Origin: Actinomycetota bacterium
GTDB taxonomy: Bacteria > Actinomycetota > Actinomycetes > JAKEEW01
Reading direction: 5' to 3'
Length of the DNA: 33,158 bases
NCBI GenBank assembly: GCA_046725875.1
Contig: JBKOZJ010000095.1
Location: 1 to 33,158 of the forward strand
Shown piece by piece: positions 4,148 to 15,803 of the stretch; within the stretch, counting starts at the first letter, position 1, and every line of letters begins with the position of its first letter. A program made the translations under genes and the position numbers. Below the pieces are notes generated by a model, which ran no database searches, was not told where the DNA came from, and saw only the letters and a list, made by a program, of their open reading frames with translations.

Positions 4148-6799
4148 TCACGCCGCGCCGAGGGGGAGAAAGGCAAGGGCGGTCGCTTGCGCGACGGGGT
4201 CGGCAGTAGTCGCCTTGCGCGCGTAGTGCATGGCGTGCGCAAGGTCGTCCCCGGCCCGCAGGCGTTCGTGTACGAGAAGGGAGACGCGCACGGCCGCGTC
4301 GTCGTCGACCACGACTGTGCTTCCAAGCAGCCCCGCTGTCCCAAGCGAGATCAGCGCGCTCGCCAGCCCAAGCACCTCGTCCGCGCCCGCCTTCGTACCG
4401 ATGCCCGACTCGCACGCGGAGAGGATGAGCCGGTACGGCGCCCGCCGGAGGCGTTCGATGTCGTACACCGTCAGCGGACCGTCATGCAGCGTCAGTGCCG
4501 AGAACAAGGGGTTGTCCGAGCGAAGCGTGCCGTGTGCCGCGATGTGCGCTAGCCAGGCATTGTTCAGCGCCTTCAGAGCGTCCTCGCACCGCGCTGTGCC
4601 ATCGGCAAGGACCATGGCCTGGTCGTAGGTCCTCTGCAGCTCTGTTACCTCCGCCCCGCGCGAGCCGAGATCTGGGCCGGCGATGAGTACGACATCCCGC
4701 CTACGCGGCGGTCGCCGGTTCTTGGCGCGCAGCCACGCCGCCGCCGAGGGTGCGACGGTGAACGGCCGATCCCGGAGCGCAGGGAGTATGGCCCACGGCA
4801 GCGCGTGCAGTTTCGCAGGTGGCACTACGATCACCGGCCCGTCACCGAGCGCACGCACGGCCTTGCCGAAGAGCATCTCCTGCAACCGAGGCGCAGCGAC
4901 GTCGACCCGTTGCAGCGCAACTCGTGCCCGAGCCTCACCAGTGCCGGCGGCGCCGCGCAACGCGAACCGCGTGTGGTCGACCTCGCGCGCCACCTCCTCG
5001 ATCCGCCCGGCGTCGAACCTCCGCACCTTTCCGCCACCCGCGACGAGAGCGATGAGCTCCCCGTCGACCTCCACGATCGACACCAGCCGCCAGCCGCCCA
5101 GGGACTCCAGCAACTCCCGAATGTGGAACGACGCCGAAGTGGCGCTGCCCCCTAACCCCGGCGTCTGCAGCGTCCGCGCCCGGATAGCCTCCTCCAACCG
5201 CCGCCGGTCCCGCTCGAGCTGGGTCGTGGACTGGCCAGCCAGCCTTGCCTCAGTCAGCTTGTGTGTGACGCCTCGAAGTTTGGCGAGATCAGCGACAAGC
5301 TGCTTGTCATCCGGCGGCTCCGCCGGCGGAATGGCGGCGATGGTCGCGCGCCAGCGTTCGGTCCATCTGAGCAGCGCACGCGGATCGTTGGCCACCAGCG
5401 CCTCGTGGATGGCTATCTCGGCAAGAGCGGCGCCATGGGCAGTCGCTGATGCCTGCATTTCGGCCGCTCCAAGCGTGACCCGGTAAGCGTCTACGATCTG
5501 CAGGCCGCGCTCGCACGCGTCGAACACTGATTTACGCCGTCCGGCCGCCTGGGCACGCAGCGCCGACGCGTGCCAACCGAGTACCCGGCTCAGCGGCGCC
5601 CCCCGAGATCGGGCACGGGCCGCCCGCAGCAGGTGGGCCTCGGCGGCTGCGCGGTCGTCCAGGCCGGACGCGATCTGCCCAGCCAGCAGGTGGGCGTCGA
5701 GCGCCTCAGCCACGCGGTGCCGATCGGCCGTTGCCGCCACCTCAGCCGCAGCTCTGAACAAGCGACGGTCGCGTTCGCCGGACGCATACCGGGCTCGGAC
5801 AACCACGAGCCGCGCCAGCGCTTCGCCGCGCTCGCGTCCCTGACGCCGGAAGAGCCGAACCGCCTCGATGGCGTCGGTCTTGGCGAGTTCCACGTCATGG
5901 GTTGCCAATGCGGCCTTCGCCGCGCGCACCAGAGCGTTCGCCCGGTAGGCCGCCGAACCCCCCTGGCGGCGCAGAATGTTGACCGCCTCCTGCCCGTGGC
6001 GAAGGGCGTCGGCGTACAGACCCACGGCGAGCAGCGCCGCACAACGGACCTCCGAGAGCTCGGCCGGCCGCGCCCCGGCTTCGGCATACCTCCCCTCAGC
6101 CGCGTCGTAGTGCGCCAGTGCTTCGGGTACCTTTCCCAGCAGCGCCGCAACGATTCCGCGGTTGTGGCGCGCGACAGCTGCTTCGAACTGTTGGGCATTC
6201 TCGGTCAGGACGGCTTCCGCTCGGGCGAGAGCCTCCTCCGCGCGGCGGGCGTCACCGCGATCGAGGAGAACGTCCGAAAGGGTGATCAAAGCGCGAGGCT
6301 CCCAGACGGTGTCACCTGCGGCACGGAGGGTCCGCGCCGCACGGCGAAACTCCTCGATTGCCTCACCGGTGCGGCCGAGGATGCCGAGGAGGAATCCGCG
6401 ACGCACCCTCACCCGCGCCGCCATTACCCCCGATACTTTGGCGAGTGCCGCATCCATATGGCGAAGCGCCTCGCGGCTGCGGCCAGCGTAGGCGAGAGTG
6501 GCGCCAAGGCTCGCCTGAACATCGGCCTGCCGCTCGCCGCCGCAGGAGGCCGCTGTAACTAGCGCGGCGCGGAGGTGGCGGACAGCTCCGCCAACGTCAC
6601 CCATCTCCCTGGTCGCGATGCCAAGCGCCTGGACCGCGTACGAGCGGACGTATGGATCACGGGTCGTCGCAAGCACGCGTTGGGCCACCAGCGCGGTCTC
6701 CTGGGGCCGAGAAAGCGCGCGCACCGGAAGATCCTCTGCCTGGCCGTCTAAGGTCATTTCGGCGGAGGAGGAATTTGGCTTTGGTTTCTCCAGGACCAC
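4148..6799 (-). CDS. TPR-repeat + CHAT domain (caspase/HetF-like) protease
   Basis: Ala-rich TPR-like helical repeats, then a CHAT domain with LHALPW, catalytic His in AHIAAHG and Cys in LSACESG. Start at GTG 6799 (TAGCCT -10 element 7 nt upstream, leaderless); ATG 6757 is the alternative. Confidence 0.9.
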   Translation of the reverse strand: MVLEKPKPNSSSAEMTLDGQAEDLPVRALSRPQETALVAQRVLATTRDPYVRSYAVQALGIATREMGDVGGAVRHLRAALVTAASCGGERQADVQASLGATLAYAGRSREALRHMDAALAKVSGVMAARVRVRRGFLLGILGRTGEAIEEFRRAARTLRAAGDTVWEPRALITLSDVLLDRGDARRAEEALARAEAVLTENAQQFEAAVARHNRGIVAALLGKVPEALAHYDAAEGRYAEAGARPAELSEVRCAALLAVGLYADALRHGQEAVNILRRQGGSAAYRANALVRAAKAALATHDVELAKTDAIEAVRLFRRQGRERGEALARLVVVRARYASGERDRRLFRAAAEVAATADRHRVAEALDAHLLAGQIASGLDDRAAAEAHLLRAARARSRGAPLSRVLGWHASALRAQAAGRRKSVFDACERGLQIVDAYRVTLGAAEMQASATAHGAALAEIAIHEALVANDPRALLRWTERWRATIAAIPPAEPPDDKQLVADLAKLRGVTHKLTEARLAGQSTTQLERDRRRLEEAIRARTLQTPGLGGSATSASFHIRELLESLGGWRLVSIVEVDGELIALVAGGGKVRRFDAGRIEEVAREVDHTRFALRGAAGTGEARARVALQRVDVAAPRLQEMLFGKAVRALGDGPVIVVPPAKLHALPWAILPALRDRPFTVAPSAAAWLRAKNRRPPRRRDVVLIAGPDLGSRGAEVTELQRTYDQAMVLADGTARCEDALKALNNAWLAHIAAHGTLRSDNPLFSALTLHDGPLTVYDIERLRRAPYRLILSACESGIGTKAGADEVLGLASALISLGTAGLLGSTVVVDDDAAVRVSLLVHERLRAGDDLAHAMHYARKATTADPVAQATALAFLPLGAA

Positions 6800-6912
6800 T
6801 CGACCAAGGCTAGAGACCGTGAAGTGGCAAAGACAGCTCCGCGGTAAGCGGAGATGCACGTAGAGTGATCTCAGGTGTACGGAAGGGGTTACTCGCTTCA
6901 GGAGGGGAAGTC

Positions 6913-8274
6913 GTGTCCCAGGACGACAATGGCGCCCAAACGCCGGAGGCCGTTGAGCAAGCGCGCGACGAGCTCCGGCGGCGATTGGTCCCAGAGGTGC
7001 GGACAGCCCTGCAGAATGCCCCTGATGTGCGGGCGTGGCCGCTGAACTGGGATGAGAGAGGGCGGATCGATTACTTCTATCGCAGCCGATCGCTGTTAGC
7101 TCGTGACCGAGACCTTCCGCGTGTCCACAGCGCGCTGCGTGCCTTGGGCGTCCAGTTCGGGGACGCCGACACTGCGGCGGCACAGGCCCTGCCCGAGCCT
7201 GCCGACCATGCGCTGGTCAGCGGCGTCACCAGGCTCGACGCCCGTGTCCGCGAATCGCAGCACACGCCCGATGTCGTCGACGACCTCGATAGGCGCCTCG
7301 GTGTAGGCGTAGTAACGCACGATCACGTGTGCGTGATCACCTACGGAACCGTCTGCCCGGCGACGGAGCCGGAGGAAGTCATTACGCCTCAAGCGGCGGA
7401 GAACCCGGCGGCGGTGCGGGAGGCCCTGTGGCCGAGTGTCGGCGACCCAGCGGCGGGGCGTAATGTCAGGATCTCCGTCGTTGATACTGGTCTGCTGTCC
7501 GGGGCGACCGCGTGGGCGCCCTGGATACAGGGTGTACGCCCCAACACGAGCGCCGACATCGAGGATCCAGACCAGATCACGGTCGACTCCATGGGCCGCG
7601 GAATGGACGGCTTCGCCGACCCGTACGCTGGCCACGGCACCTTCGTGTCTGGCGTGATCCGTTGCGTCGCCCCGGGCTCGCACATTGTCGTCGAGCGCGC
7701 CCTCGGAGTCTCGGGCTTCACATGGGAGTCCCGCCTCGTCACACAGATTCACGACGCCCTGTCCCGTTCCCCCGACATCATCAGCATGTCTGCTGGCTGC
7801 TACACCCGGGGGAACATTCCTTCACTCGCCTTCCAGGTCCTATGGGAGGAGCGCCTCAGCCAACTCGGCGGTGTCGCACTCGTTGCCGCCGCAGGCAACG
7901 ACTCGCGGACTGCCCCGTTCTGGCCAGCCGCGTTTCCATGGTGCGTGGGGGTGGGCTCGACGAGTCGCGATGGGCAGCGCCGCTCCTGGTTCAGCAACCA
8001 TGGAGCCTGGGTCGACGTCTATGCGCCGGGCGAAGAAATCGTGAACGCCTACGCCCACCTGAAGTACAAGACGATCGTCAGCGGCCAGGTGCGGGACACC
8101 TCCGCAGGCATCGTCAAATGGAGCGGTACATCGTTCTCGACCCCGATCGTCACCGGTCTTATCGCGGCCCGGATGTCAAGCACCGGAGAGAACGCACGCC
8201 AGGCTGCCGACGCGCTGCTCGCCGGGGCGCGATACCAGTTCCGCCCCGGTGTGGGACCTCGCCTTTTCCCCTGA
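6913..8274 (+). CDS. S8 (subtilisin-like) serine peptidase, no evident signal peptide
   Basis: Triad VVDTG / GHGTFVSG / SGTSFSTP, oxyanion AAAGN; GGAGG at 6901 upstream of GTG 6913. Confidence 0.92.
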   Translation: MSQDDNGAQTPEAVEQARDELRRRLVPEVRTALQNAPDVRAWPLNWDERGRIDYFYRSRSLLARDRDLPRVHSALRALGVQFGDADTAAAQALPEPADHALVSGVTRLDARVRESQHTPDVVDDLDRRLGVGVVTHDHVCVITYGTVCPATEPEEVITPQAAENPAAVREALWPSVGDPAAGRNVRISVVDTGLLSGATAWAPWIQGVRPNTSADIEDPDQITVDSMGRGMDGFADPYAGHGTFVSGVIRCVAPGSHIVVERALGVSGFTWESRLVTQIHDALSRSPDIISMSAGCYTRGNIPSLAFQVLWEERLSQLGGVALVAAAGNDSRTAPFWPAAFPWCVGVGSTSRDGQRRSWFSNHGAWVDVYAPGEEIVNAYAHLKYKTIVSGQVRDTSAGIVKWSGTSFSTPIVTGLIAARMSSTGENARQAADALLAGARYQFRPGVGPRLFP

Positions 8275-8585
8275 CCCTGGCGCCCACACTATCGCCCGCC
8301 CAACAGCGACGAGGATCTTCGCCAGTGGCTGGTGGGCGAAGCCTCCGCACAAGTGTGAAGATCACATGGCAATCCCCTGGAACCGTGGAGACTCCTCTTA
8401 GCTGATTCGTGGTCTTGGCCGGCACGCGCCGCGCGTGGCCGCGGGCAGGCTGGGCCTGCCTGTCGTTGCTGCTCGTCAGGGGCCACGGAGGCTCCGCGGT
8501 CAAGGGCGGAGGCCGTCGCGGAGCGGCCATGGGCCCTTGACGGCGGAGGGGTGGCCCCGTAGCCGCGCGGCGCACCGGAGGGTGG

Positions 8586-9467
8586 TCATGCCGCCGTCTC
8601 CTGTCGGGCCCGTTCGTAGTCGACCGGGGCCACCATGCCGATCGTGGAGTGCCGCCGGTGGTGGTTGTACTCCTCGAGGAAGGCCGCGACGGCGTGCCGC
8701 GCTTCGGCGCGGGTGATGAAGTGTGCCTCCCGCAGCAGCTCGAACTCCACGGTGGAGTGGAGCGACTCGGCGACGGCGTTGTCCAGCGCGGACCCGGTGC
8801 GTCCCATCGACTGGGTCACCGCGGTGTTCGCGCACGCGGCGGCGAACAGCTGCCCGGTGTATTCGCCGCCCTGGTCGGTGTGGAACACCACCCCGGCCAC
8901 GTGGCCGCCGCGGATCGCGATGGCCATGCACAGCGCGGCCCGGGCGAGCTCGCCGTTGTGGTGGTTCCCCATCGCGAACCCGACACAGCGGCGGGAATGC
9001 AGGTCCAGCACGCTGGCCAGATACAGCGGCCCCTCGTCGGTGGGGATGTCGGTCAGGTCGCCCACCCAGGCCTGGTTCGGCTTGTCCCGCAGGGAGAAGT
9101 CACGGCCCAGCAGGTCCGGGGCTTTCCGCGCCGACCGGTCCGGTTTGGTCAGTCCCCGCCGGCGCCGCGTCCGCCGAGCCGCCAGCCCGTGCTCGCGCAT
9201 GAGTTCGGCGACGGTGTTCTGGCTGACCCGCCACCCCAGATCCCGCAGTTCGGCGGTGATCCGCGGTGACCCATAGCGGCGGTTGTGCTTGGCGAACAGG
9301 TACCCGACCGCGGCGGCCAGCGCCCGCCGTCGAGCCCGCCGCAGCGACACGTCGCCGTGGCGCCACTTGTAGAACCACGCCTGCGAGACACCCAGTGCCC
9401 GACACGTCACCGCGTGCGGGATGCCGAACTCGACCCTCTGGGTCGCGACAAAGCCGGCCAGGCTCAC
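8586..9467 (-). CDS. IS3-family transposase OrfB (DDE integrase core)
   Basis: RYGSPRI, WVGDLT (D), FHTDQG (D), DNAVAES (E), YNHHRRHSTIG. Confidence 0.95.
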   Translation of the reverse strand: MSLAGFVATQRVEFGIPHAVTCRALGVSQAWFYKWRHGDVSLRRARRRALAAAVGYLFAKHNRRYGSPRITAELRDLGWRVSQNTVAELMREHGLAARRTRRRRGLTKPDRSARKAPDLLGRDFSLRDKPNQAWVGDLTDIPTDEGPLYLASVLDLHSRRCVGFAMGNHHNGELARAALCMAIAIRGGHVAGVVFHTDQGGEYTGQLFAAACANTAVTQSMGRTGSALDNAVAESLHSTVEFELLREAHFITRAEARHAVAAFLEEYNHHRRHSTIGMVAPVDYERARQETAA

Positions 9468-9757
9468 CGCCCCATCGCTTCCCTCACCCAGAGGGCGGCC
9501 GAGCGCTTGAGCACATCGCGCTCCATCGCCAGCTCGGCGTTCTCCCTGCGCAACCGGTTCAGCTCGTCCCGCTCCGACTCGGTCAACGCGCCGTCACCCG
9601 CGCGGGCCCGCCGGTCCCTAGTCACCCAGTTGCCCAGCGTGCCCTCGTTGATCCCCAGCTCCCGAGCCACCACAGCGATCGGCTTCCCGGTCTCCCGGAC
9701 GATGCGGACCGCGCCCTCCCGGAACTCCCGATCGAACTTCCTGCGCCCGTCTGCCAT
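9464..9757 (-). CDS. IS3-family transposase OrfA (HTH)
   Basis: RRKFDREFREGAVRIV...VARELGINEGTLGNWV...coiled coil ERDVLKR; GGAGG RBS upstream of ATG 9757; stop overlaps orfB start (GTGA). Confidence 0.93.
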   Translation of the reverse strand: MADGRRKFDREFREGAVRIVRETGKPIAVVARELGINEGTLGNWVTRDRRARAGDGALTESERDELNRLRRENAELAMERDVLKRSAALWVREAMGR

Positions 9758-9888
9758 CGCCCACCTCCTCAAGGCGATGTCTCCACGCTACGAGGGGAAG
9801 CCCACACAGTCGGGGTCGACGAGCGCTGGTTGCGCGGGTTCATGCCGAGACTGTGGGGGAGCGTGCGGAAGAGTGTGACCGCTGTTGG

Positions 9889-10356
9889 CTAGATATGGAG
9901 CCAGGTGGTGGCTATCGGGGTCGCCGCGCCAGCGGGAGTGGCGACGAGGCTGACGACACCAGGCTCGATGGGATCGGCGATGAAGCGGCCGAGGTCATCG
10001 ACCGAAACGGTCATCGTTGACCGCTTGCCTGCGTGACGGACCTCTAGCTCAGTCGCGACGCTGGGCGTCAGCTGACCGATCAACCGTCGGCTGTCGCCGG
10101 AAATGATGATCTCCATGTCGATCGTCACCGGACCGGCCGCGAAGGTCACCAACCGCGACGCCTGCTCGCTCCGTACACCCGCCAACTCCGCACCCGCGGA
10201 GTCCTGGACGAGTTCGGCGAGCTCGGCGTCGATGCGTCGCCAAGTGAGGCTCGCCCGGGCCGCCTCCGACACCAAATCCGGCAACGGGTCGGCGGCCTCC
10301 GCCACCTCGCGAAGCGCGGCCAGCAGCTCGCCGTCGTCCTCCCACGCCTCGGTCAT
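9889..10356 (-). CDS. Hypothetical 155-aa protein downstream of ECF sigma; putative soluble anti-sigma/partner with beta-rich C-terminus
   Basis: Helical N-terminus (DDGELLAALR...DAELAEL), then beta-strand-rich part ending VDDLGRF...PG, reminiscent of carboxypeptidase-regulatory-like folds; co-oriented with the sigma gene. Function is inferred. Confidence 0.7.
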   Translation of the reverse strand: MTEAWEDDGELLAALREVAEAADPLPDLVSEAARASLTWRRIDAELAELVQDSAGAELAGVRSEQASRLVTFAAGPVTIDMEIIISGDSRRLIGQLTPSVATELEVRHAGKRSTMTVSVDDLGRFIADPIEPGVVSLVATPAGAATPIATTWLHI

Positions 10357-10438
10357 CGAGACCCCCGTTGCGCGGATGCGCGAGGTCCGGCGTGGGCCCG
10401 CTCCCCGCGCACCAAGTCGTGTACGAGCCTGGAGTGCA

Positions 10439-11077
10439 TCAGCTGACCTCCGCCGCCAGTTGTGCACGCAACTGCTGGAGGCAGCGTTGGCGGGTCGGGC
10501 CGATGCTGCCGATGGCCATATTGAGCGCCTCGGCGATCTGCGCATAGTGCGCCTCGGTCGCCGCCGAAAGCGCCCGCAGGAGCACCTGGCACCGGCGCGG
10601 CAGCAGCGCCAGCGCTGCCCAGAGTGTTTGGTGCCGCTCGTTCGTCAGGGCCGCCGTCTCGGGCGACTCCACGGGATCAGCGGCGGGGCGCTCGGCCAGC
10701 TCAGCCTCCGGTATCTCCCGGCCGCGCGCCCGTACCATTCGCAGTGACTCGCGCTGCGCCACGGTTACCAGCCAAGCGGCGATGCGGGACGGCTCGCGCA
10801 CGACCGACAGGCTCTCGATCAGGCGCAGCCATACCGTCTGGCTCACGTCGGCCGCGTCGGCGACATCCAGCCCGTACCCCCGCGGAATCGACCAGACCAG
10901 CCGAGCGAAGCGACGTACGAGCTCGTCCCAGGCGCGCTGGTCGCCTCCCGCCGCAGTCTTCACCAAGAGCGCAACGTCGGTGTTCGCGAGCGCGTCAGGC
11001 GCGCACGGGTAGGTTCCCGCGGAACCCCGGTGATCCGTATTGCTGAGCTCGCCGTGGTCTGCGGGTTTGACCGTCAC
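10439..11077 (-). CDS. ECF-type RNA polymerase sigma-70 factor
   Basis: Region 2 (AWDELVRRF...DAADVSQTVWLRL...WLVTVAQRE) and region 4 (LPRRCQVLL...YAQIAEALNMAIGSIGPTRQRCL); GTG 11077 has TACATT -10 element 6 nt upstream. Confidence 0.92.
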   Translation of the reverse strand: MTVKPADHGELSNTDHRGSAGTYPCAPDALANTDVALLVKTAAGGDQRAWDELVRRFARLVWSIPRGYGLDVADAADVSQTVWLRLIESLSVVREPSRIAAWLVTVAQRESLRMVRARGREIPEAELAERPAADPVESPETAALTNERHQTLWAALALLPRRCQVLLRALSAATEAHYAQIAEALNMAIGSIGPTRQRCLQQLRAQLAAEVS

Positions 11078-11763
11078 GGGCGCAATGTAACCGACCCACC
11101 GCCTCGACGTCCCCGGCGCGCCACATGTCTCCCGGCGGACCCCACCAGACGGCGAGGCGACTCCCCCGTGGCCGCCCCACCGCTCGGTGCCCCCGCTGGT
11201 CGCCGCCGACCGCGGGCCCGGCGACAGAACCCCCGCACTGCCGCCGGCCCACGGCCAGATGACCCCGTAACCCCCGTGGCGCCACGGCGTCCCAGCGCCC
11301 CGGCTGGTCGGGCGAACGACCCCCATCGGACCGCCCGACCAGCCGTGGGAAAGTGCGCCGGCGAGCCAGCGCCACCGGGTTGACCCGTGGCGAAGAGCAC
11401 GACCGCGCAGGACATCGAATCGCGCCACGCCACCCCCTCGGGTCTCAGGTTGCTGGCTCGCCGACTGGGCACCCCATGCCTCGAGAGGCGCCCGATTACA
11501 AGAGATCGGGGCGGGCTCGGGTGATACGAGCGACACATCACTGTCCGGTAACGATGTCCCGCTCGATGCGTCATGCCACTCTCCAAATCCCGCCGCCATG
11601 TGCGGCCAAGTCAGGCCGCTGCCACGCCGTCCGAGCGCTGGTCGGATGGTTCCGAAGTTGCCCCCCCGGGGACCTAGACGTTTCCCGGCGACGTAACGTG
11701 CGATACCAGGCTGGCGGCATCTCGCCACTTGTCCCGCGGGGAGGTGTGGCTAACGTGACCCGC

Positions 11764-13029
11764 ATGGCGACCGACCCGACCGATCAGATGTACGCGGAGA
11801 AGCTCGACGCGGCCGACGAGCTGGCCAGTTTCGCCGACCGCTTCATGGTCGATGACCCGGATCTGATCTATCTGGATGGCAACTCGCTCGGCCGGCTTCC
11901 GCGCACTACCCGCGACCGCCTCGCCCGCGCCGTCGACGAGGAGTGGGGGCGGGACTTAATCCGCTCCTGGGACTACTGGATCGACCTGCCCACCCGAGTC
12001 GGTGATCTTCTAGCGACCGAACTCATCGGCGCCCACACGGGTGAGGTGGTGGTCTCGGACTCGACCACGGTCAACCTCTACAAGCTCGCGGCCGCCGCGC
12101 TAACCGCCCGCGCCGGCCGGCGAGTGATCGTGACCGACGACGACAACTTTCCGACCGACCGATACGTGGTCGAAGGGCTGGCCGCGGCCCACGGGCTCAC
12201 ACTCAAGATGGTGCGCTCGGATCCGGTGCACGGTCCTAGCCGCGAGGAGCTCGATGCGGCGATCGACGAGGACACGGCGCTCGTCACGCTTTCGCATGTC
12301 GCTTTCCGGTCCGGCGCCCTTTTGGATATGAGCGACATCACGCGGCTCGCCCATGAGCGCGGGGCGCTGATGCTGTGGGACCTGTGCCACTCGGTCGGGT
12401 CGGTGCCGGTCGAGCTTGCAGCGGCCGGCGCGGATCTGGCGGTGGGCTGCACGTACAAATACGTCAACGCCGGGCCGGGCGCCCCCGCCTTCCTCTACGT
12501 ACGCCGGGACTTGCAGGACGCGCTTCGCCAGCCGATCTGGGGATGGTTCGGGCAGCGGGACATGTTCGCCATGGGCCCCGCCTATGACCCAGAGCCGGGC
12601 ATCCGCCGGTTCACGACGGGCACGCCGTCGATCTTGGGCGTATACGCAGTTCAGCAGGGCGCGGAGCTGCTCGCGGAAGCCGGGATGTACCGAGTGCGAG
12701 CGAAAGGTATCGCGCTCACGTCCTATCTGATCGACCTAGCCGACGCCTGGCTCGCGCCGCTCGGCTTCTCGGTGGCGACACCGCGCGACCCGGAACGGCG
12801 TGGCGCCCAGGTGTCGCTCCGCCACGACCAGGCGTGGCAAATCTGCCAGGCGTACATCGAGAAGGCCCGGGTCATCCCGGACTTCCGCGGCCCCGACCGG
12901 CTCCGCCTCGGACTGTCTCCCCTAACTACCAGCTTCGTGGACGTGTGGGACGGGCTCTCCCGGCTTCGGGCCCTCGTTGAGAACGGCGACCATCAGTCGT
13001 ACCCAGCATCCGCATCCCGCGTGACTTAG
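11764..13029 (+). CDS. kynU: Kynureninase (PLP-dependent)
   Basis: YLDGNSLG, WDLCHS, GCTYKYVNAGPG (PLP lysine), WGWFG, PDFR; TAACGT -10 element 7 nt before ATG 11764. Confidence 0.92.
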   Translation: MATDPTDQMYAEKLDAADELASFADRFMVDDPDLIYLDGNSLGRLPRTTRDRLARAVDEEWGRDLIRSWDYWIDLPTRVGDLLATELIGAHTGEVVVSDSTTVNLYKLAAAALTARAGRRVIVTDDDNFPTDRYVVEGLAAAHGLTLKMVRSDPVHGPSREELDAAIDEDTALVTLSHVAFRSGALLDMSDITRLAHERGALMLWDLCHSVGSVPVELAAAGADLAVGCTYKYVNAGPGAPAFLYVRRDLQDALRQPIWGWFGQRDMFAMGPAYDPEPGIRRFTTGTPSILGVYAVQQGAELLAEAGMYRVRAKGIALTSYLIDLADAWLAPLGFSVATPRDPERRGAQVSLRHDQAWQICQAYIEKARVIPDFRGPDRLRLGLSPLTTSFVDVWDGLSRLRALVENGDHQSYPASASRVT

Positions 13030-13299: not shown

Positions 13300-14214
13300 A
13301 TGCATCCAGCTTTGAGCGCCGCGGAGCGCGAGCATGGTGGCGTCTTCCGAGTGGCCGAGGCGGTGGCCTGCGGCTACGCCGATGACGAGATAAGAGGCCT
13401 GGTCCGTTCAGGCCGGTGGGTTCGGGTCAGACACGGGATTCTCGCCGAGAGGGAGACCGCGGCGGCCATTCGCGCCGAGCCCGAGGGAGCGCTCGCTCTA
13501 TCCCTTGCCGGCGAAATTTGTGCCCGGCCCAGCGCCCGTCTGGCCGCTAGCCACGAGTCCGCCGCTCGGCTGCTCGGCCTGGATTTCATCGTCGATCCAC
13601 CGCGCATGCTCACGCTTACCACCGACACGCCCGGTAGAGGGCGAGGATGGGTGAGCGGGGTTCGCATTAGGCGGGCGACACTACCGCCCGGTCATGTCAC
13701 GGAGTGCCGTCGGCTACCTGTCACAACCGTCGCTCGCACGGTGGTCGACCTTGCTCGCGAGCAGCCATTCCGCAACGCGGTCGTGTTGGCTGACTCCGCG
13801 TTGCGGAGGGGCCTGACCAGCCGCGATGAGCTGGACCAAGTCGTTAGGGCTGCCTGGACCTGGCCAGGCATCCGAGACGCCAGCCGGGTGGTGGAATTCA
13901 GCGATGGTCGTGCTCAATCAGCTGCGGAGTCGGTCGCCCGCGTTCTGTTCGCGACCGTGGGGCTGCCCGCGCCTCTGCTGCAGGCAGTTATCTCGGACAG
14001 AGATGGCATTGCGGGCCAGGTGGACTTCCTCTTCCGCGAAGAGCGGACGATCGTCGAGATCGACGGGAAGGCCAAGTATCGCGAGCAGGAGGACGCCCTG
14101 TTTCTGGAGAAGAAGCGGCAGGACCGGCTGGAAGACCTTGGATACCGGGTCGTACGCCTAACTTGGCGCGAGATCGTTCACGAACCGGAAATGGTGCTCC
14201 GTAAGATCGCGTGA
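13300..14214 (+). CDS. AbiEi-like N-terminal HTH + DUF559 (Vsr-like PD-(D/E)xK endonuclease) protein
   Basis: N-terminal GRWVRVRHGI, SHESAARLLG, VTTVARTVVDLAR, QSAAES; C-terminal VDFLF...IVEIDG...EKKRQDRLEDLGYRVVRLTW. Confidence 0.85.
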   Translation: MHPALSAAEREHGGVFRVAEAVACGYADDEIRGLVRSGRWVRVRHGILAERETAAAIRAEPEGALALSLAGEICARPSARLAASHESAARLLGLDFIVDPPRMLTLTTDTPGRGRGWVSGVRIRRATLPPGHVTECRRLPVTTVARTVVDLAREQPFRNAVVLADSALRRGLTSRDELDQVVRAAWTWPGIRDASRVVEFSDGRAQSAAESVARVLFATVGLPAPLLQAVISDRDGIAGQVDFLFREERTIVEIDGKAKYREQEDALFLEKKRQDRLEDLGYRVVRLTWREIVHEPEMVLRKIA

Positions 14215-14255: not shown

Positions 14256-14335
14256 GATCCACCAAGCGCGCCAAGCATGAACATGACGTACCGCGTGCAA
14301 GCCGTTAGGTCACCGGTTCGGCAGCTTGGCGGATC
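14256..14335. repeat. 80-bp REP-like element, copy 2
   Basis: GATCCACCAAGC-N56-GCTTGGCGGATC; same length as copy 1 with a partly conserved interior. Confidence 0.8.
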
Positions 14336-14487
14336 AAAGCGTCGAGTGTCGGGGCCGTGGTAGTCGGCGGCGCCTTATTCAGCACGGCTAACGGCATTCA
14401 GCATGGCTAACGGCAAGCTTGGCGGATCAAAGCGCCAGCATCGGGGCTGTGGTAGTCGGCGACGCTAAATTCAGCGTGGCTGACGGC
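14324..14487. repeat. Imperfect tandem repeat (2 x ~72 bp, with a 19-bp subunit present 3 times)
   Basis: GCTTGGCGGATCAAAGCG...TCGGGGCYGTGGTAGTCGGCGRCGC at 14324 and 14417; ATTCAGCRYGGCTRACGGC at 14377, 14396 and 14469. Confidence 0.9.
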
Positions 14488-14510
14488 AAAGCCAGGGTGG
14501 CGCTAGACGG

Positions 14511-15803
14511 CTAGTCCGAGTTGCGGGTGCGTGTGCCGAAGAGGATCTCGTCCCAGCTGGGTACGCTCGCCCGACGCGGTCGGGGTCCGCTTGGCGGTCG
14601 CTCGGCAGGGCCGATGAGCCGCTCCTCGTAGAGGCTCGGCCGGCGGATCGGGGCGGTCGCCGAGGCGGGCACATGCGGGCGGCGGGACCGCCGGGCCGGC
14701 CGGTCGCGATCGGGGTCGTTGCGCTGTAGCGGCCGGCGCGGTGGTACCGGAGCCAGCGGCACGAGACCGCCCATTGCGGCGACACCGACTCTCGGAACGA
14801 CCAGGCCGTCGTCGCCGCTATAGGCGGCGACGCCGCGGTCCGGGCGCTGTCCGACACCCGGTCCCAGGGCACTCGTGCCGTCGGTTCTCGAAGCACCGGC
14901 ACCGGCGATCCCCGGGCCAATGTCGGCCGCCGGCGCCGGCAGATCGAGAATGTCGCCCGCGCGGCCAGGCTGCTCCCGCCCGTGCCGAGCCGCCGGCGAT
15001 CCCTTTGCGGCGCGGCCGCCGCGTGGCCCGGCGCCCCCGGCGCTGGCACGGTCGATCACGCCAGAACCGATGTCGATCGCGGCATCCTGGTCGCCGCCCT
15101 CGTCCGCCAAACCGGACATCCGCGGCCGCAGGCCGGCCATCGCCTCAGCCGCGAGGGTTTGCTGCTCGGCAACGAGCAGCCGCGCGTTGTCGTTGTCGGG
15201 GCTCACGGTGCGACGGGTTGGATCGAGCAGGAACAGTGCCCGTTCGGTTGCGCCGGCGCTGTCTTCGCTCCCTACTTCATCGCCGCTGCCAGCCGGGTTG
15301 CTCTCGGCTGGAGCATGAGCGGCTGCAGGTCGGTGGGCGACCGCGACCTGCCAGCGCCCGTCCTCCCGCCGCCATGAATCCCACGACGCGGTATCCGGGT
15401 CGATGCCGCGCTCCCGCAGGCGCTGCGCGAGCACGTCGCCGAGCAACGGCGCCGGTCGCTCATTTGGAATAGATGCGTGCATGGCGGTCCGTCGAGCCAT
15501 CGCCGCCATGTGCTCCCGCTCGGCGAGCACCGGGCCCTCGTAGCGACGGACCCGTTCGAGCGGAATGCCCGACGCCTCGGCCACGTCGGCGGCCGACTCG
15601 CCGGCTCGGATCCTGGCCTGGATGTCACGTGGCCGTAGCGGCGTGTCCAACTCGATCTCGAGCTGACCGAGCCGTACCCGGTCCCCACGGACCGCGGCCT
15701 TCAGCTTCTCGTCGAGCGGAAGTGCGTACTCGCTGCCGTCCAGGGCGCGGAGCAGGAGCCGGGCACCCTCGTCGATGGCCGTGACCAGGCGCAGCTCTTG
15801 CAT
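14511..15803 (-). CDS. sepH: Septation protein SepH (DUF3071)
   Basis: MQELRLV...LRPRDIQARIRAG...RVRRYEGPVLAER, WDSWRREDGRW, disordered linker, C-terminal RRASVPSWDEILFG. Confidence 0.92.
   Translation of the reverse strand: MQELRLVTAIDEGARLLLRALDGSEYALPLDEKLKAAVRGDRVRLGQLEIELDTPLRPRDIQARIRAGESAADVAEASGIPLERVRRYEGPVLAEREHMAAMARRTAMHASIPNERPAPLLGDVLAQRLRERGIDPDTASWDSWRREDGRWQVAVAHRPAAAHAPAESNPAGSGDEVGSEDSAGATERALFLLDPTRRTVSPDNDNARLLVAEQQTLAAEAMAGLRPRMSGLADEGGDQDAAIDIGSGVIDRASAGGAGPRGGRAAKGSPAARHGREQPGRAGDILDLPAPAADIGPGIAGAGASRTDGTSALGPGVGQRPDRGVAAYSGDDGLVVPRVGVAAMGGLVPLAPVPPRRPLQRNDPDRDRPARRSRRPHVPASATAPIRRPSLYEERLIGPAERPPSGPRPRRASVPSWDEILFGTRTRNSD

Follow-up and report, generated by a model that had tools for sequence, protein, structure and literature searches.

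An ECF54-type module of a TPR-CHAT protease, a pro-subtilisin, a sigma factor and its predicted anti-sigma partner in an actinobacterial genome

Results

Gene content of the module

The stretch of DNA analysed here, called the window in what follows, comprises 33,158 nucleotides of an Actinomycetota contig (JBKOZJ010000095.1, assembly GCA_046725875.1). Between positions 4148 and 11077 it holds a module of four genes, each backed by profile searches or homology: a TPR-CHAT protease, an S8 subtilase, a sigma factor of the extracytoplasmic function (ECF) type and a 155-aa protein that we designate P155. As the G+C content is about 68% across the window, long spurious open reading frames (ORFs) are frequent, and gene starts had to be revised in two cases. 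Judged from their sequences, all four genes are real and catalytically intact. They had been singled out in an original prediction, made from the DNA letters alone, as a candidate proteolytic signalling or defence cascade.

The TPR-CHAT gene (4148-6757, minus strand) encodes a caspase-like cysteine protease of 869 aa, recognised by the Pfam models CHAT (7e-26) and TPR_12. Its N-terminal part of approximately 600 aa consists of TPR-like repeats, and the catalytic dyad follows in the motifs AHG at 741 (AAHG, H742) and SACE at 780 (SACES, C782). Of the 61 CHAT matches in related loci, 9 were incomplete or off-length and were dropped, and the other 52 were aligned with the window copy. Both the His and the Cys are at least 90% conserved, so that the intact dyad behind a TPR-like region, on which the original prediction was built, was borne out. 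The closest solved relatives of the CHAT domain are structures of Csx29 (8d9f and 7x8a, E 7e-4), with His and Cys aligned, and the proposed likeness to Csx29 stands as well. The gene had first been taken as an ORF of 1011 aa (4148-7183), which is over-extended. We place the true start at ATG 6757, because homologue lengths cluster around 865-885 aa, and because the first 142 residues of the longer ORF are of low complexity and run antisense to the true N-terminus of the S8 protease.

The S8 gene (6913-8274, plus strand; Pfam subtilase, 9e-23) encodes 453 aa. Its start had been put near 7297, a position that did not hold: GTG 6913 is preceded by AGGAGG and fits the lengths of the homologues, about 437-470 aa. 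With both starts moved, the divergent region between CHAT and S8 measures 155 bp (6758-6912) instead of 113 bp, and motif scans for an ECF54-type promoter found no match within it. An alignment of 37 sequences was made from the window copy and 36 of the 53 S8 matches, leaving out 17 that were incomplete or off-length, and in all 37 the residues D191, H241, N329 and S407 are invariant. In the AlphaFold2 model computed from this alignment (pLDDT 85.1, pTM 0.89), a helix near the N-terminus (11-34) is followed by a beta-alpha-beta prodomain (52-141) and this by the catalytic domain. The model's best Foldseek match is unautoprocessed pro-subtilisin E (3whi, 1e-19 over 419 columns), and pro-Tk-subtilisin and pro-CylA were matched also. 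Given the triad, the oxyanion Asn N329, the prodomain fold and the matches to unprocessed pro-subtilisins, S8 is, by its model, a pro-subtilisin with a zymogen-like fold and without a secretion signal. It shares triad, oxyanion Asn and propeptide fold with the known pro-subtilisins, whereas the secretion signal is theirs only; the earlier description of an S8 protease with a complete triad and no signal peptide was therefore accurate.

The sigma gene (10439-11077, minus strand) encodes an ECF54-like ECF sigma factor of 212 aa with domains 2 and 4 only. Sigma70_r2 and TIGR02937 (8.5e-20) together span residues 49-207, which confirms the ECF call, and there is no fused extension. The protein is 31-50% identical to the sigma factors that adjoin P155 homologues in 72 aligned loci. 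Neither a signal peptide nor a credible membrane segment was found in any of the four proteins. The highest Kyte-Doolittle mean over 19 residues is 1.72, within the part of the CHAT core that aligns to Csx29, and the values for S8, sigma and P155 are at most 1.42, in line with the first reading that none has a transmembrane segment. All four are thus predicted to be cytoplasmic.

P155 and its predicted complex with sigma

P155 (9889-10356, minus strand) occupies the position called +1 in ECF54 loci, directly after the sigma gene, and is predicted to be a soluble anti-sigma factor. Of 2214 word-sharing candidates, 162 are relatives at E≤0.001, and PF13620 (carboxypeptidase-regulatory-like) is found on 3 of the 120 relatives listed. 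Window P155 itself gave no Pfam match, and neither a Pfam or NCBIfam anti-sigma domain nor zf-HC2 or RskA was detected in it. A profile search of representative clusters yielded 5630 matches at E≤0.001, of which 2734 reach 1e-10 and 609 reach 1e-30. The 150 profile matches listed are 145-254 aa long, nearly all of them below 210 aa, and each covers the profile along nearly its full length. Fused versions of greater length were sought separately and did not turn up, which is weak evidence that none exists.

In the AlphaFold2 model of P155 (73 sequences, pLDDT 83.8) two long helices at the N-terminus, 3-22 and 27-54, are joined by a low-confidence linker (56-63) to a seven-strand beta-sandwich (69-141). 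The protein has no cysteine, no peptidase residues and no peptidase fold. Foldseek against the PDB returned nothing at E≤0.001, the best matches (4e-3) being generic beta-sandwiches only, and a profile search of the PDB with the P155 alignment used for co-folding (A4) returned nothing below E 0.5. The ESM Atlas gave only unnamed actinobacterial clusters; one of these scored 0.83, and 36% of its members carry zf-HC2, which is a lead only. Within the linker, the pattern V-R-[G/S/A], V61-R62-S63 in the window, is present in 73 of 73 P155 sequences, two alignment offsets having been read by eye. It sits in the low-confidence stretch 56-63, outside the predicted interface with sigma.

Co-folding of sigma with P155, which the original prediction had proposed as a check, gave a predicted interface: ipSAE values were 0.81, 0.81 and 0.86 (median 0.81), versus 0.11 for the best of three controls. 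The runs agreed in at least 87% of contacts, and the pLDDT of the partner was at least 83. The alignments (A3 and A4) covered 72 of 80 related loci, 8 with incomplete or off-length genes being dropped. Since P155 has no sequence relative among solved structures, this result is not the recall of a homologous complex. The predicted interface joins residues 1-55 of P155, and a few residues of its beta-sandwich, to sigma residues 42-117 (domain 2) and 143-211 (domain 4). Wedging between the sigma domains is the usual mode of occlusion by anti-sigma factors. Because its two N-terminal helices sit between domains 2 and 4 in the co-fold, P155 is probably a soluble anti-sigma factor, a role that had been suggested for the 155-aa protein and that is supported both by this score and by its fixed place after sigma (see below). 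The known class I and zinc-binding anti-sigma factors have a four-helix domain or an HxxxCxxC motif, whereas P155 has two helices and no cysteine; if the model is right, P155 would act like an anti-sigma factor without belonging to either of these families.

Conservation of the module in related loci

Related loci were collected with a P155 alignment from one genome per species, and 80 loci were kept of 116 confirmed. A subset of 12 sequences (A2) served as seed, the full P155 alignment (A1) being too diverse. Neighbouring genes were identified by tblastn of the four window proteins at E≤1e-5. The best P155 identity between the window and any genome of the scanned collection was 52%. Among the titles of the 80 loci, as we read them, no phylum other than Actinomycetota is named, except for one Gemmatimonadales-labelled bin contig (L038); a handful give nothing more than "bacterium".

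In 77 of the 80 loci the gene immediately upstream of P155 is sigma; the other three are one contig end and two real exceptions (L040 and L045). With gene starts set heuristically, 39 of the 77 pairs have a P155 start that overlaps the end of sigma, 31 of them by 4 nt, and another 25 pairs are 0-30 nt apart. The gap of 82 nt in the window is a minority arrangement. S8 was found in 53 of the 80 loci and CHAT in 61. Flanks of at least 7 kb are available on either side in 46 loci: 33 of these contain S8 and CHAT, 4 contain CHAT without S8, 9 lack both, and S8 without CHAT does not occur. This answers the call in the original prediction for a check of neighbourhood conservation: most full loci around relatives of the sigma-P155 pair contain both proteases.

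Writing C for CHAT, S for S8, G for sigma and P for P155, with an arrow for the strand, the order C< S> G> P> occurs in 23 loci and S< C> G> P> in 19, while G> P> C> S< and the window's own G> P> S< C> occur in 3 each. The two pairs thus differ among loci in order and in strand, and S8 and CHAT remain adjacent and mostly divergent. Clustering of 3592 ORFs revealed no fifth gene family in more than 11 of 81 loci; only ORFs of at least 110 aa with a third-position GC above the second-position GC were taken, and small conserved genes could be missed.

A few loci depart from the common plan. L011 has two tandem P155 copies after sigma (9502-10444) and a second subtilase after CHAT (14467-15624). 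In L046 a second P155 copy (1071-1499) adjoins S8 on the opposite strand. The P155 homologues of L040 (2341-2811) and L045 (3130-3659) have CTATCAA-N15-CTCT just upstream, and no sigma gene was detected in the 2.4-3.2 kb that precede them. These orphan copies may be controlled in trans.

An ECF54-type promoter motif

On the two strands of the window taken together there is a single exact match to GTATCA-N16/17-CTC[CT], namely GTATCAC-N16-CTCT at 11527-11501 (minus strand), 423 nt before the sigma start. Block-shuffled sequences gave a mean of 0.08 exact matches per window. This candidate ECF54-type autoregulatory promoter differs from the published GTATCAG / CTCC by one mismatch in each half. 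Three Jiangellales loci (L001, L002 and L004) carry the same motif 387-447 nt before sigma. The leader from the promoter to the sigma start (11078-11500, minus strand, about 420 nt) lacks coding periodicity, as does the whole 686-bp gap between the sigma and kynureninase starts (11078-11763) that contains promoter and leader. It has a block of about 25 nt in common with the equally long leaders of the same three loci, and no Rfam family was found in the window or in L001, L002 and L004.

Two coding candidates in this region were rejected. The frame of sigma stays open up to 11728, but relatives carry stop codons in that stretch, which speaks against a longer N-terminus. An ORF of 170 aa (11074-11586, minus strand), the stop of which overlaps the sigma start, is Arg/Gly-rich and without codon periodicity.

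To survey the loci, the motif was defined as GTATCA with at most one mismatch, one free base, 15-16 free bases and CTC[CT], and was sought from 550 nt before to 60 nt after each gene start; over the 2.55 Mb of strand sequence that the 80 loci provide, it was counted 125 times in all. It was present upstream of sigma in 27 of 76 loci, of P155 in 14 of 80, of S8 in 19 of 54 and of CHAT in 0 of 61. In the relatives it is enriched before the genes for sigma, P155 and S8. S8 is on the strand opposite to sigma in 28 loci, and 10 of these have a motif of S8's own, so that S8 is there a target in its own right rather than just the leading gene of sigma's operon. A weight matrix of fixed spacing (N15) found no site near window S8 or P155; it also missed the N16 site before sigma. 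If the pattern holds, CHAT would lie outside the regulon and S8 inside it.

Membership of ECF54

ECF54 was reportedly catalogued by Huang et al. in 2015, as later papers have it. In its description of the group, the supplement of Casas-Pastor 2021 confines ECF54 to Actinobacteria and gives it sigma domains 2 and 4 only. Next to the sigma gene it lists a carboxypeptidase-regulatory-like protein in position +1, with 0.61 copies per ECF, a subtilase in position +2 or -1 (0.68) and, in position +3 or -2, a CHAT protein (0.71) along with TPR repeats, and it predicts a promoter with GTATCAG (-35) and CTCC (-10). The ECF54 context of CHAT, subtilase and carboxypeptidase-regulatory-like protein, which the original prediction had named, is therefore in print. 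A 2022 review (PMC8999054) lists the group among those "regulated by proteolysis", but as no more than a proposal. In the papers on the group that we read, no experiment is reported, and no mechanism is established; in the RIViT-seq paper and a 2021 ECF review, ECF54 and CHAT are absent beyond the reference lists.

The window has a sigma with domains 2 and 4, P155 at +1, a subtilase and a TPR-CHAT protein, the promoter, and actinobacterial core genes around them. Domain searches recognised no anti-sigma domain nearby, and the co-fold still predicts anti-sigma-like binding. On all of these features, the module is to be classed as a member of ECF54. It differs from the published set by an insertion sequence (IS) between +1 and +2, by a promoter about 420 nt upstream of sigma and by an S8 gene without the motif.

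An insertion sequence and other features of the window

The element between the two gene pairs is an IS of 1438 bp (8367-9804, minus strand), identified through Pfam rve and HTH_Tnp_1, NF033516, and its ends and flanks. It encodes OrfA (9464-9772, minus strand; NF033516, 6e-14) and OrfB (8586-9467, minus strand; NF033516, 5e-79). The inverted repeats at its ends are imperfect, agreeing at 20 of 26 positions, and terminate in TG...CA, and a 4-bp direct repeat, CACA, flanks it on both sides as a target duplication. With both ORFs, inverted repeats and target duplication in place, the element is by these marks an intact member of the IS3 family. It lies between S8 and P155, beyond the stop codons of both (8274 and 9889), and interrupts none of the four ORFs. 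It would have inserted later, in the space that separates the two gene pairs, and broke no gene. With the element removed, the distance between S8 and P155, which converge, would be about 170 bp. The sigma and P155 genes had been said to converge on S8; their orientation was given correctly, but they do so only across this element, which the original prediction had not mentioned. Third-position G+C is about 0.9 in the transposase genes (8586-9772) versus about 0.8 in the surrounding genes, which fits a recent arrival from another high-GC genome.

Around the module the synteny is that of a conserved actinobacterial core, with genes for DUF3071/SepH, ferrochelatase, inositol monophosphatase, dUTPase, DUF3710, DUF3159 and TrkA. 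Beyond the sigma leader, a kynureninase-like pyridoxal phosphate enzyme is encoded at 11764-13029 (plus strand); the 558-aa ORF listed there is over-extended, and the likely start, ATG 11764 after GGGGAGG, gives 421 aa. At 13300-14214 (plus strand), between the kynureninase and DUF3071/SepH genes, follows an ORF that is AbiEi_4 antitoxin-like at its N-terminus and has DUF559 at its C-terminus. In the Jiangellales relatives the DUF3071 gene is directly upstream of the sigma promoter; in the window the AbiEi_4/DUF559 gene lies between kynureninase and DUF3071. The gap between the AbiEi_4/DUF559 and DUF3071 genes contains 1.8 copies of a 92-bp unit (14319-14488, 83% matches).

Discussion

We propose, tentatively and at slightly less than an even chance, that CHAT is the input protease of the module, P155 its substrate and S8 the sigma-driven output, the four genes forming two conserved pairs. 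In the pair of sigma and P155, the helices of P155 are predicted to wedge between domains 2 and 4 and would keep sigma off RNA polymerase. The genes for the TPR-CHAT protease and for the pro-subtilisin S8, which lie head to head, make up the other pair. CHAT, not being under a sigma-type promoter, would be expressed constitutively and serve as the input, its TPR region taking an intracellular cue. It might then cut P155 at the conserved Arg of the exposed Val-Arg-Gly/Ser linker, upon which the freed helical fragment would be unstable and sigma would be released. Sigma would transcribe its own gene, P155, as a negative feedback, and S8. The S8 zymogen, once matured, would be the proteolytic output, and may also finish off P155, as a positive feedback. 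Compared with the original prediction, the ECF54 context, the anti-sigma role and the Csx29-like CHAT are supported, and the defence setting is not (see below). S8, which had been put forward as a substrate of CHAT, is now seen as an output or feedback component rather than a substrate only, in view of the sigma-type promoter before S8 in relatives.

Several points weigh against this proposal. Casas-Pastor 2021, in its description of ECF54, reports no putative anti-sigma, whereas the +1 protein of the window is predicted to be one. By the pattern used, only 51 of 81 loci hold at least one motif site, and where S8 precedes sigma on the same strand, the S8 motif may simply be sigma autoregulation. 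In the window neither S8 nor P155 has a motif match; therefore, only autoregulation of sigma is supported in this copy. The locus scan used the peptide pattern [VIL]DAELAELV, and the loci are thus a biased sample of the P155 family. The co-fold was run on custom alignments, so that the calibration of its mark, reached by 116 of 157 solved complexes and by 2 of 215 mismatched pairs, counts only roughly. Finally, 9 of the 46 full loci have sigma and P155, with V-R-G kept, and no protease within 10 kb: either the pair works without neighbouring proteases, or the proteases are elsewhere in the genome.

These protease-less loci would be expected if sigma and P155 were a self-contained pair, with the beta-sandwich of P155 reading a ligand or a protein signal and the proteases being only outputs or co-located genes. 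The sigma-type motif before S8 in 19 of 54 loci would agree with this account, and so would the conservation of the beta-sandwich, which is weakly like carbohydrate-binding and Ig-like modules (best Foldseek E 4e-3). CHAT, however, never has the motif (0 of 61), yet it is the protease kept most often (37 of 46 full loci, against 33 for S8), which fits an upstream regulator better, and the linkage of both pairs, rearranged yet persistent, argues for a functional tie; we consider this account rather unlikely. A published idea does away with the anti-sigma altogether and has the subtilase, CHAT or the carboxypeptidase-like protein degrade sigma itself, keeping the system off. It is stated in the ECF54 part of PMC8999054 and left open in the group's description in the Casas-Pastor 2021 supplement, and the lack of a Pfam or NCBIfam anti-sigma domain in P155 is in its favour. 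It is hard to reconcile with the anti-sigma-like co-fold (0.81 versus 0.11) and with the translational coupling of P155 to sigma that the overlaps suggest (39 of 77, heuristic starts); moreover, P155, made of two helices and a beta-sandwich and devoid of cysteine, has neither the residues nor the fold of a peptidase. A sigma-driven protease that destroyed sigma would also be pure negative feedback, leaving activation unexplained, and we hold the idea to be quite improbable.

The same low probability applies, in our opinion, to a role in anti-phage defence or abortive infection, in which CHAT would sense infection and the sigma-induced subtilisin would kill or arrest the cell, in a CRISPR-independent cascade similar to those of Craspase and PCaspase. 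What speaks for it is the likeness to Csx29/Csx30/CASP-sigma and to the SAVED-CHAT to PCaspase cascade as published, the description of conflict systems with a caspase, an ECF sigma and TPRs in the relevant part of PMC8195603, and the AbiEi_4/DUF559 gene 2.2 kb away (13300-14214). The module is nevertheless embedded in core-genome synteny, and no variable defence-island neighbours recur among the 81 loci clustered. In PADLOC, CHAT, sigma and P155 are without a match, and S8 has one of a generic subtilase kind only. For the flanks, 150 ORFs were picked from 15 loci and 123 from 13 loci were searched; 7 of the 123 match PADLOC at E≤1e-8, all through generic domains and none as part of a complete system (an ATPase, a kinase, two mad2, one of them read as methyltransferase-like, a trypsin-like protease, another subtilase and a TPR protein). 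The window lacks a CRISPR array, and none of the 32 ORFs scanned has a cas domain. Thus nothing in the gene context suggests phage defence, and neither the defence setting nor the defence-island enrichment envisaged in the original prediction was supported.

The pathway that we prefer, from CHAT through P155 to sigma and S8, has known parallels. In the RseA pathway, successive proteases (DegS, RseP and ClpXP) remove an anti-sigma and free an ECF sigma. That pathway is membrane-bound and senses the envelope, whereas the four proteins of the window are predicted to be cytoplasmic. Closer is Craspase, in which Csx29 is described as cutting Csx30 and freeing CASP-sigma (PMC10028731): the TPR-CHAT protease has the same His/Cys dyad in both systems. 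In the published account the ECF sigma of Craspase is held by the N-terminal part of a soluble inhibitor and cleavage lifts the inhibition, a likeness that for the window is predicted only. Craspase has Cas7-11, a crRNA and a CRISPR array, and the window has none of them. With the Csx29 model NF041237, window CHAT scores 20.9 bits against a cut-off of 300 and does not belong to the Csx29 family; P155 is unrelated to Csx30 by the searches run, and the second protease, S8, is found in the window only.

In the type III-B SAVED-CHAT to PCaspase cascade, as described, one protease activates another and a sigma is in the same operon, and in CalpL-CalpT-CalpS a protease is described to cut an anti-sigma and release an ECF sigma. 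Both are reported to be switched on by cyclic oligoadenylate via SAVED, and the window has neither a SAVED domain nor a cyclase. Unlike in the SAVED-CHAT cascade, the second protease of the window is a serine pro-subtilisin, seemingly linked through transcription. By analogy, the ECF54 module may work like Craspase, CalpL-CalpT-CalpS or the SAVED-CHAT cascade, but it is a member of none of them, because it lacks Cas proteins, its CHAT is below the Csx29 cut-off and P155, in the searches made, is unrelated to Csx30.

The neighbourhood itself is already known, and taken alone the window is ordinary, one more ECF54-type copy with an IS inserted at a harmless place. What is added to the published description, by computation only, is the prediction that the +1 protein is an anti-sigma, the split of the regulon with S8 in and CHAT out, and the pro-subtilisin fold. 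If P155 is indeed an anti-sigma, and if CHAT is outside and S8 inside the regulon, an unexplained neighbourhood would become a concrete pathway. More generally, ECF54 modules might form a widespread, CRISPR-independent and wholly cytoplasmic route from caspase to sigma in Actinomycetota, with CHAT as initiator, a two-helix soluble anti-sigma of a new class that is cut at its Val-Arg-Gly/Ser linker, and a pro-subtilisin as executioner. Such a cascade of two proteases coupled by transcription would be either the stock from which the logic of Craspase was drawn or a parallel invention; this broader picture we regard as doubtful at present. With 5630 representative clusters at E≤0.001, P155 belongs to a large family without a name, and, were the picture true, caspase-like cutting of a sigma inhibitor would not be a speciality of CRISPR systems.

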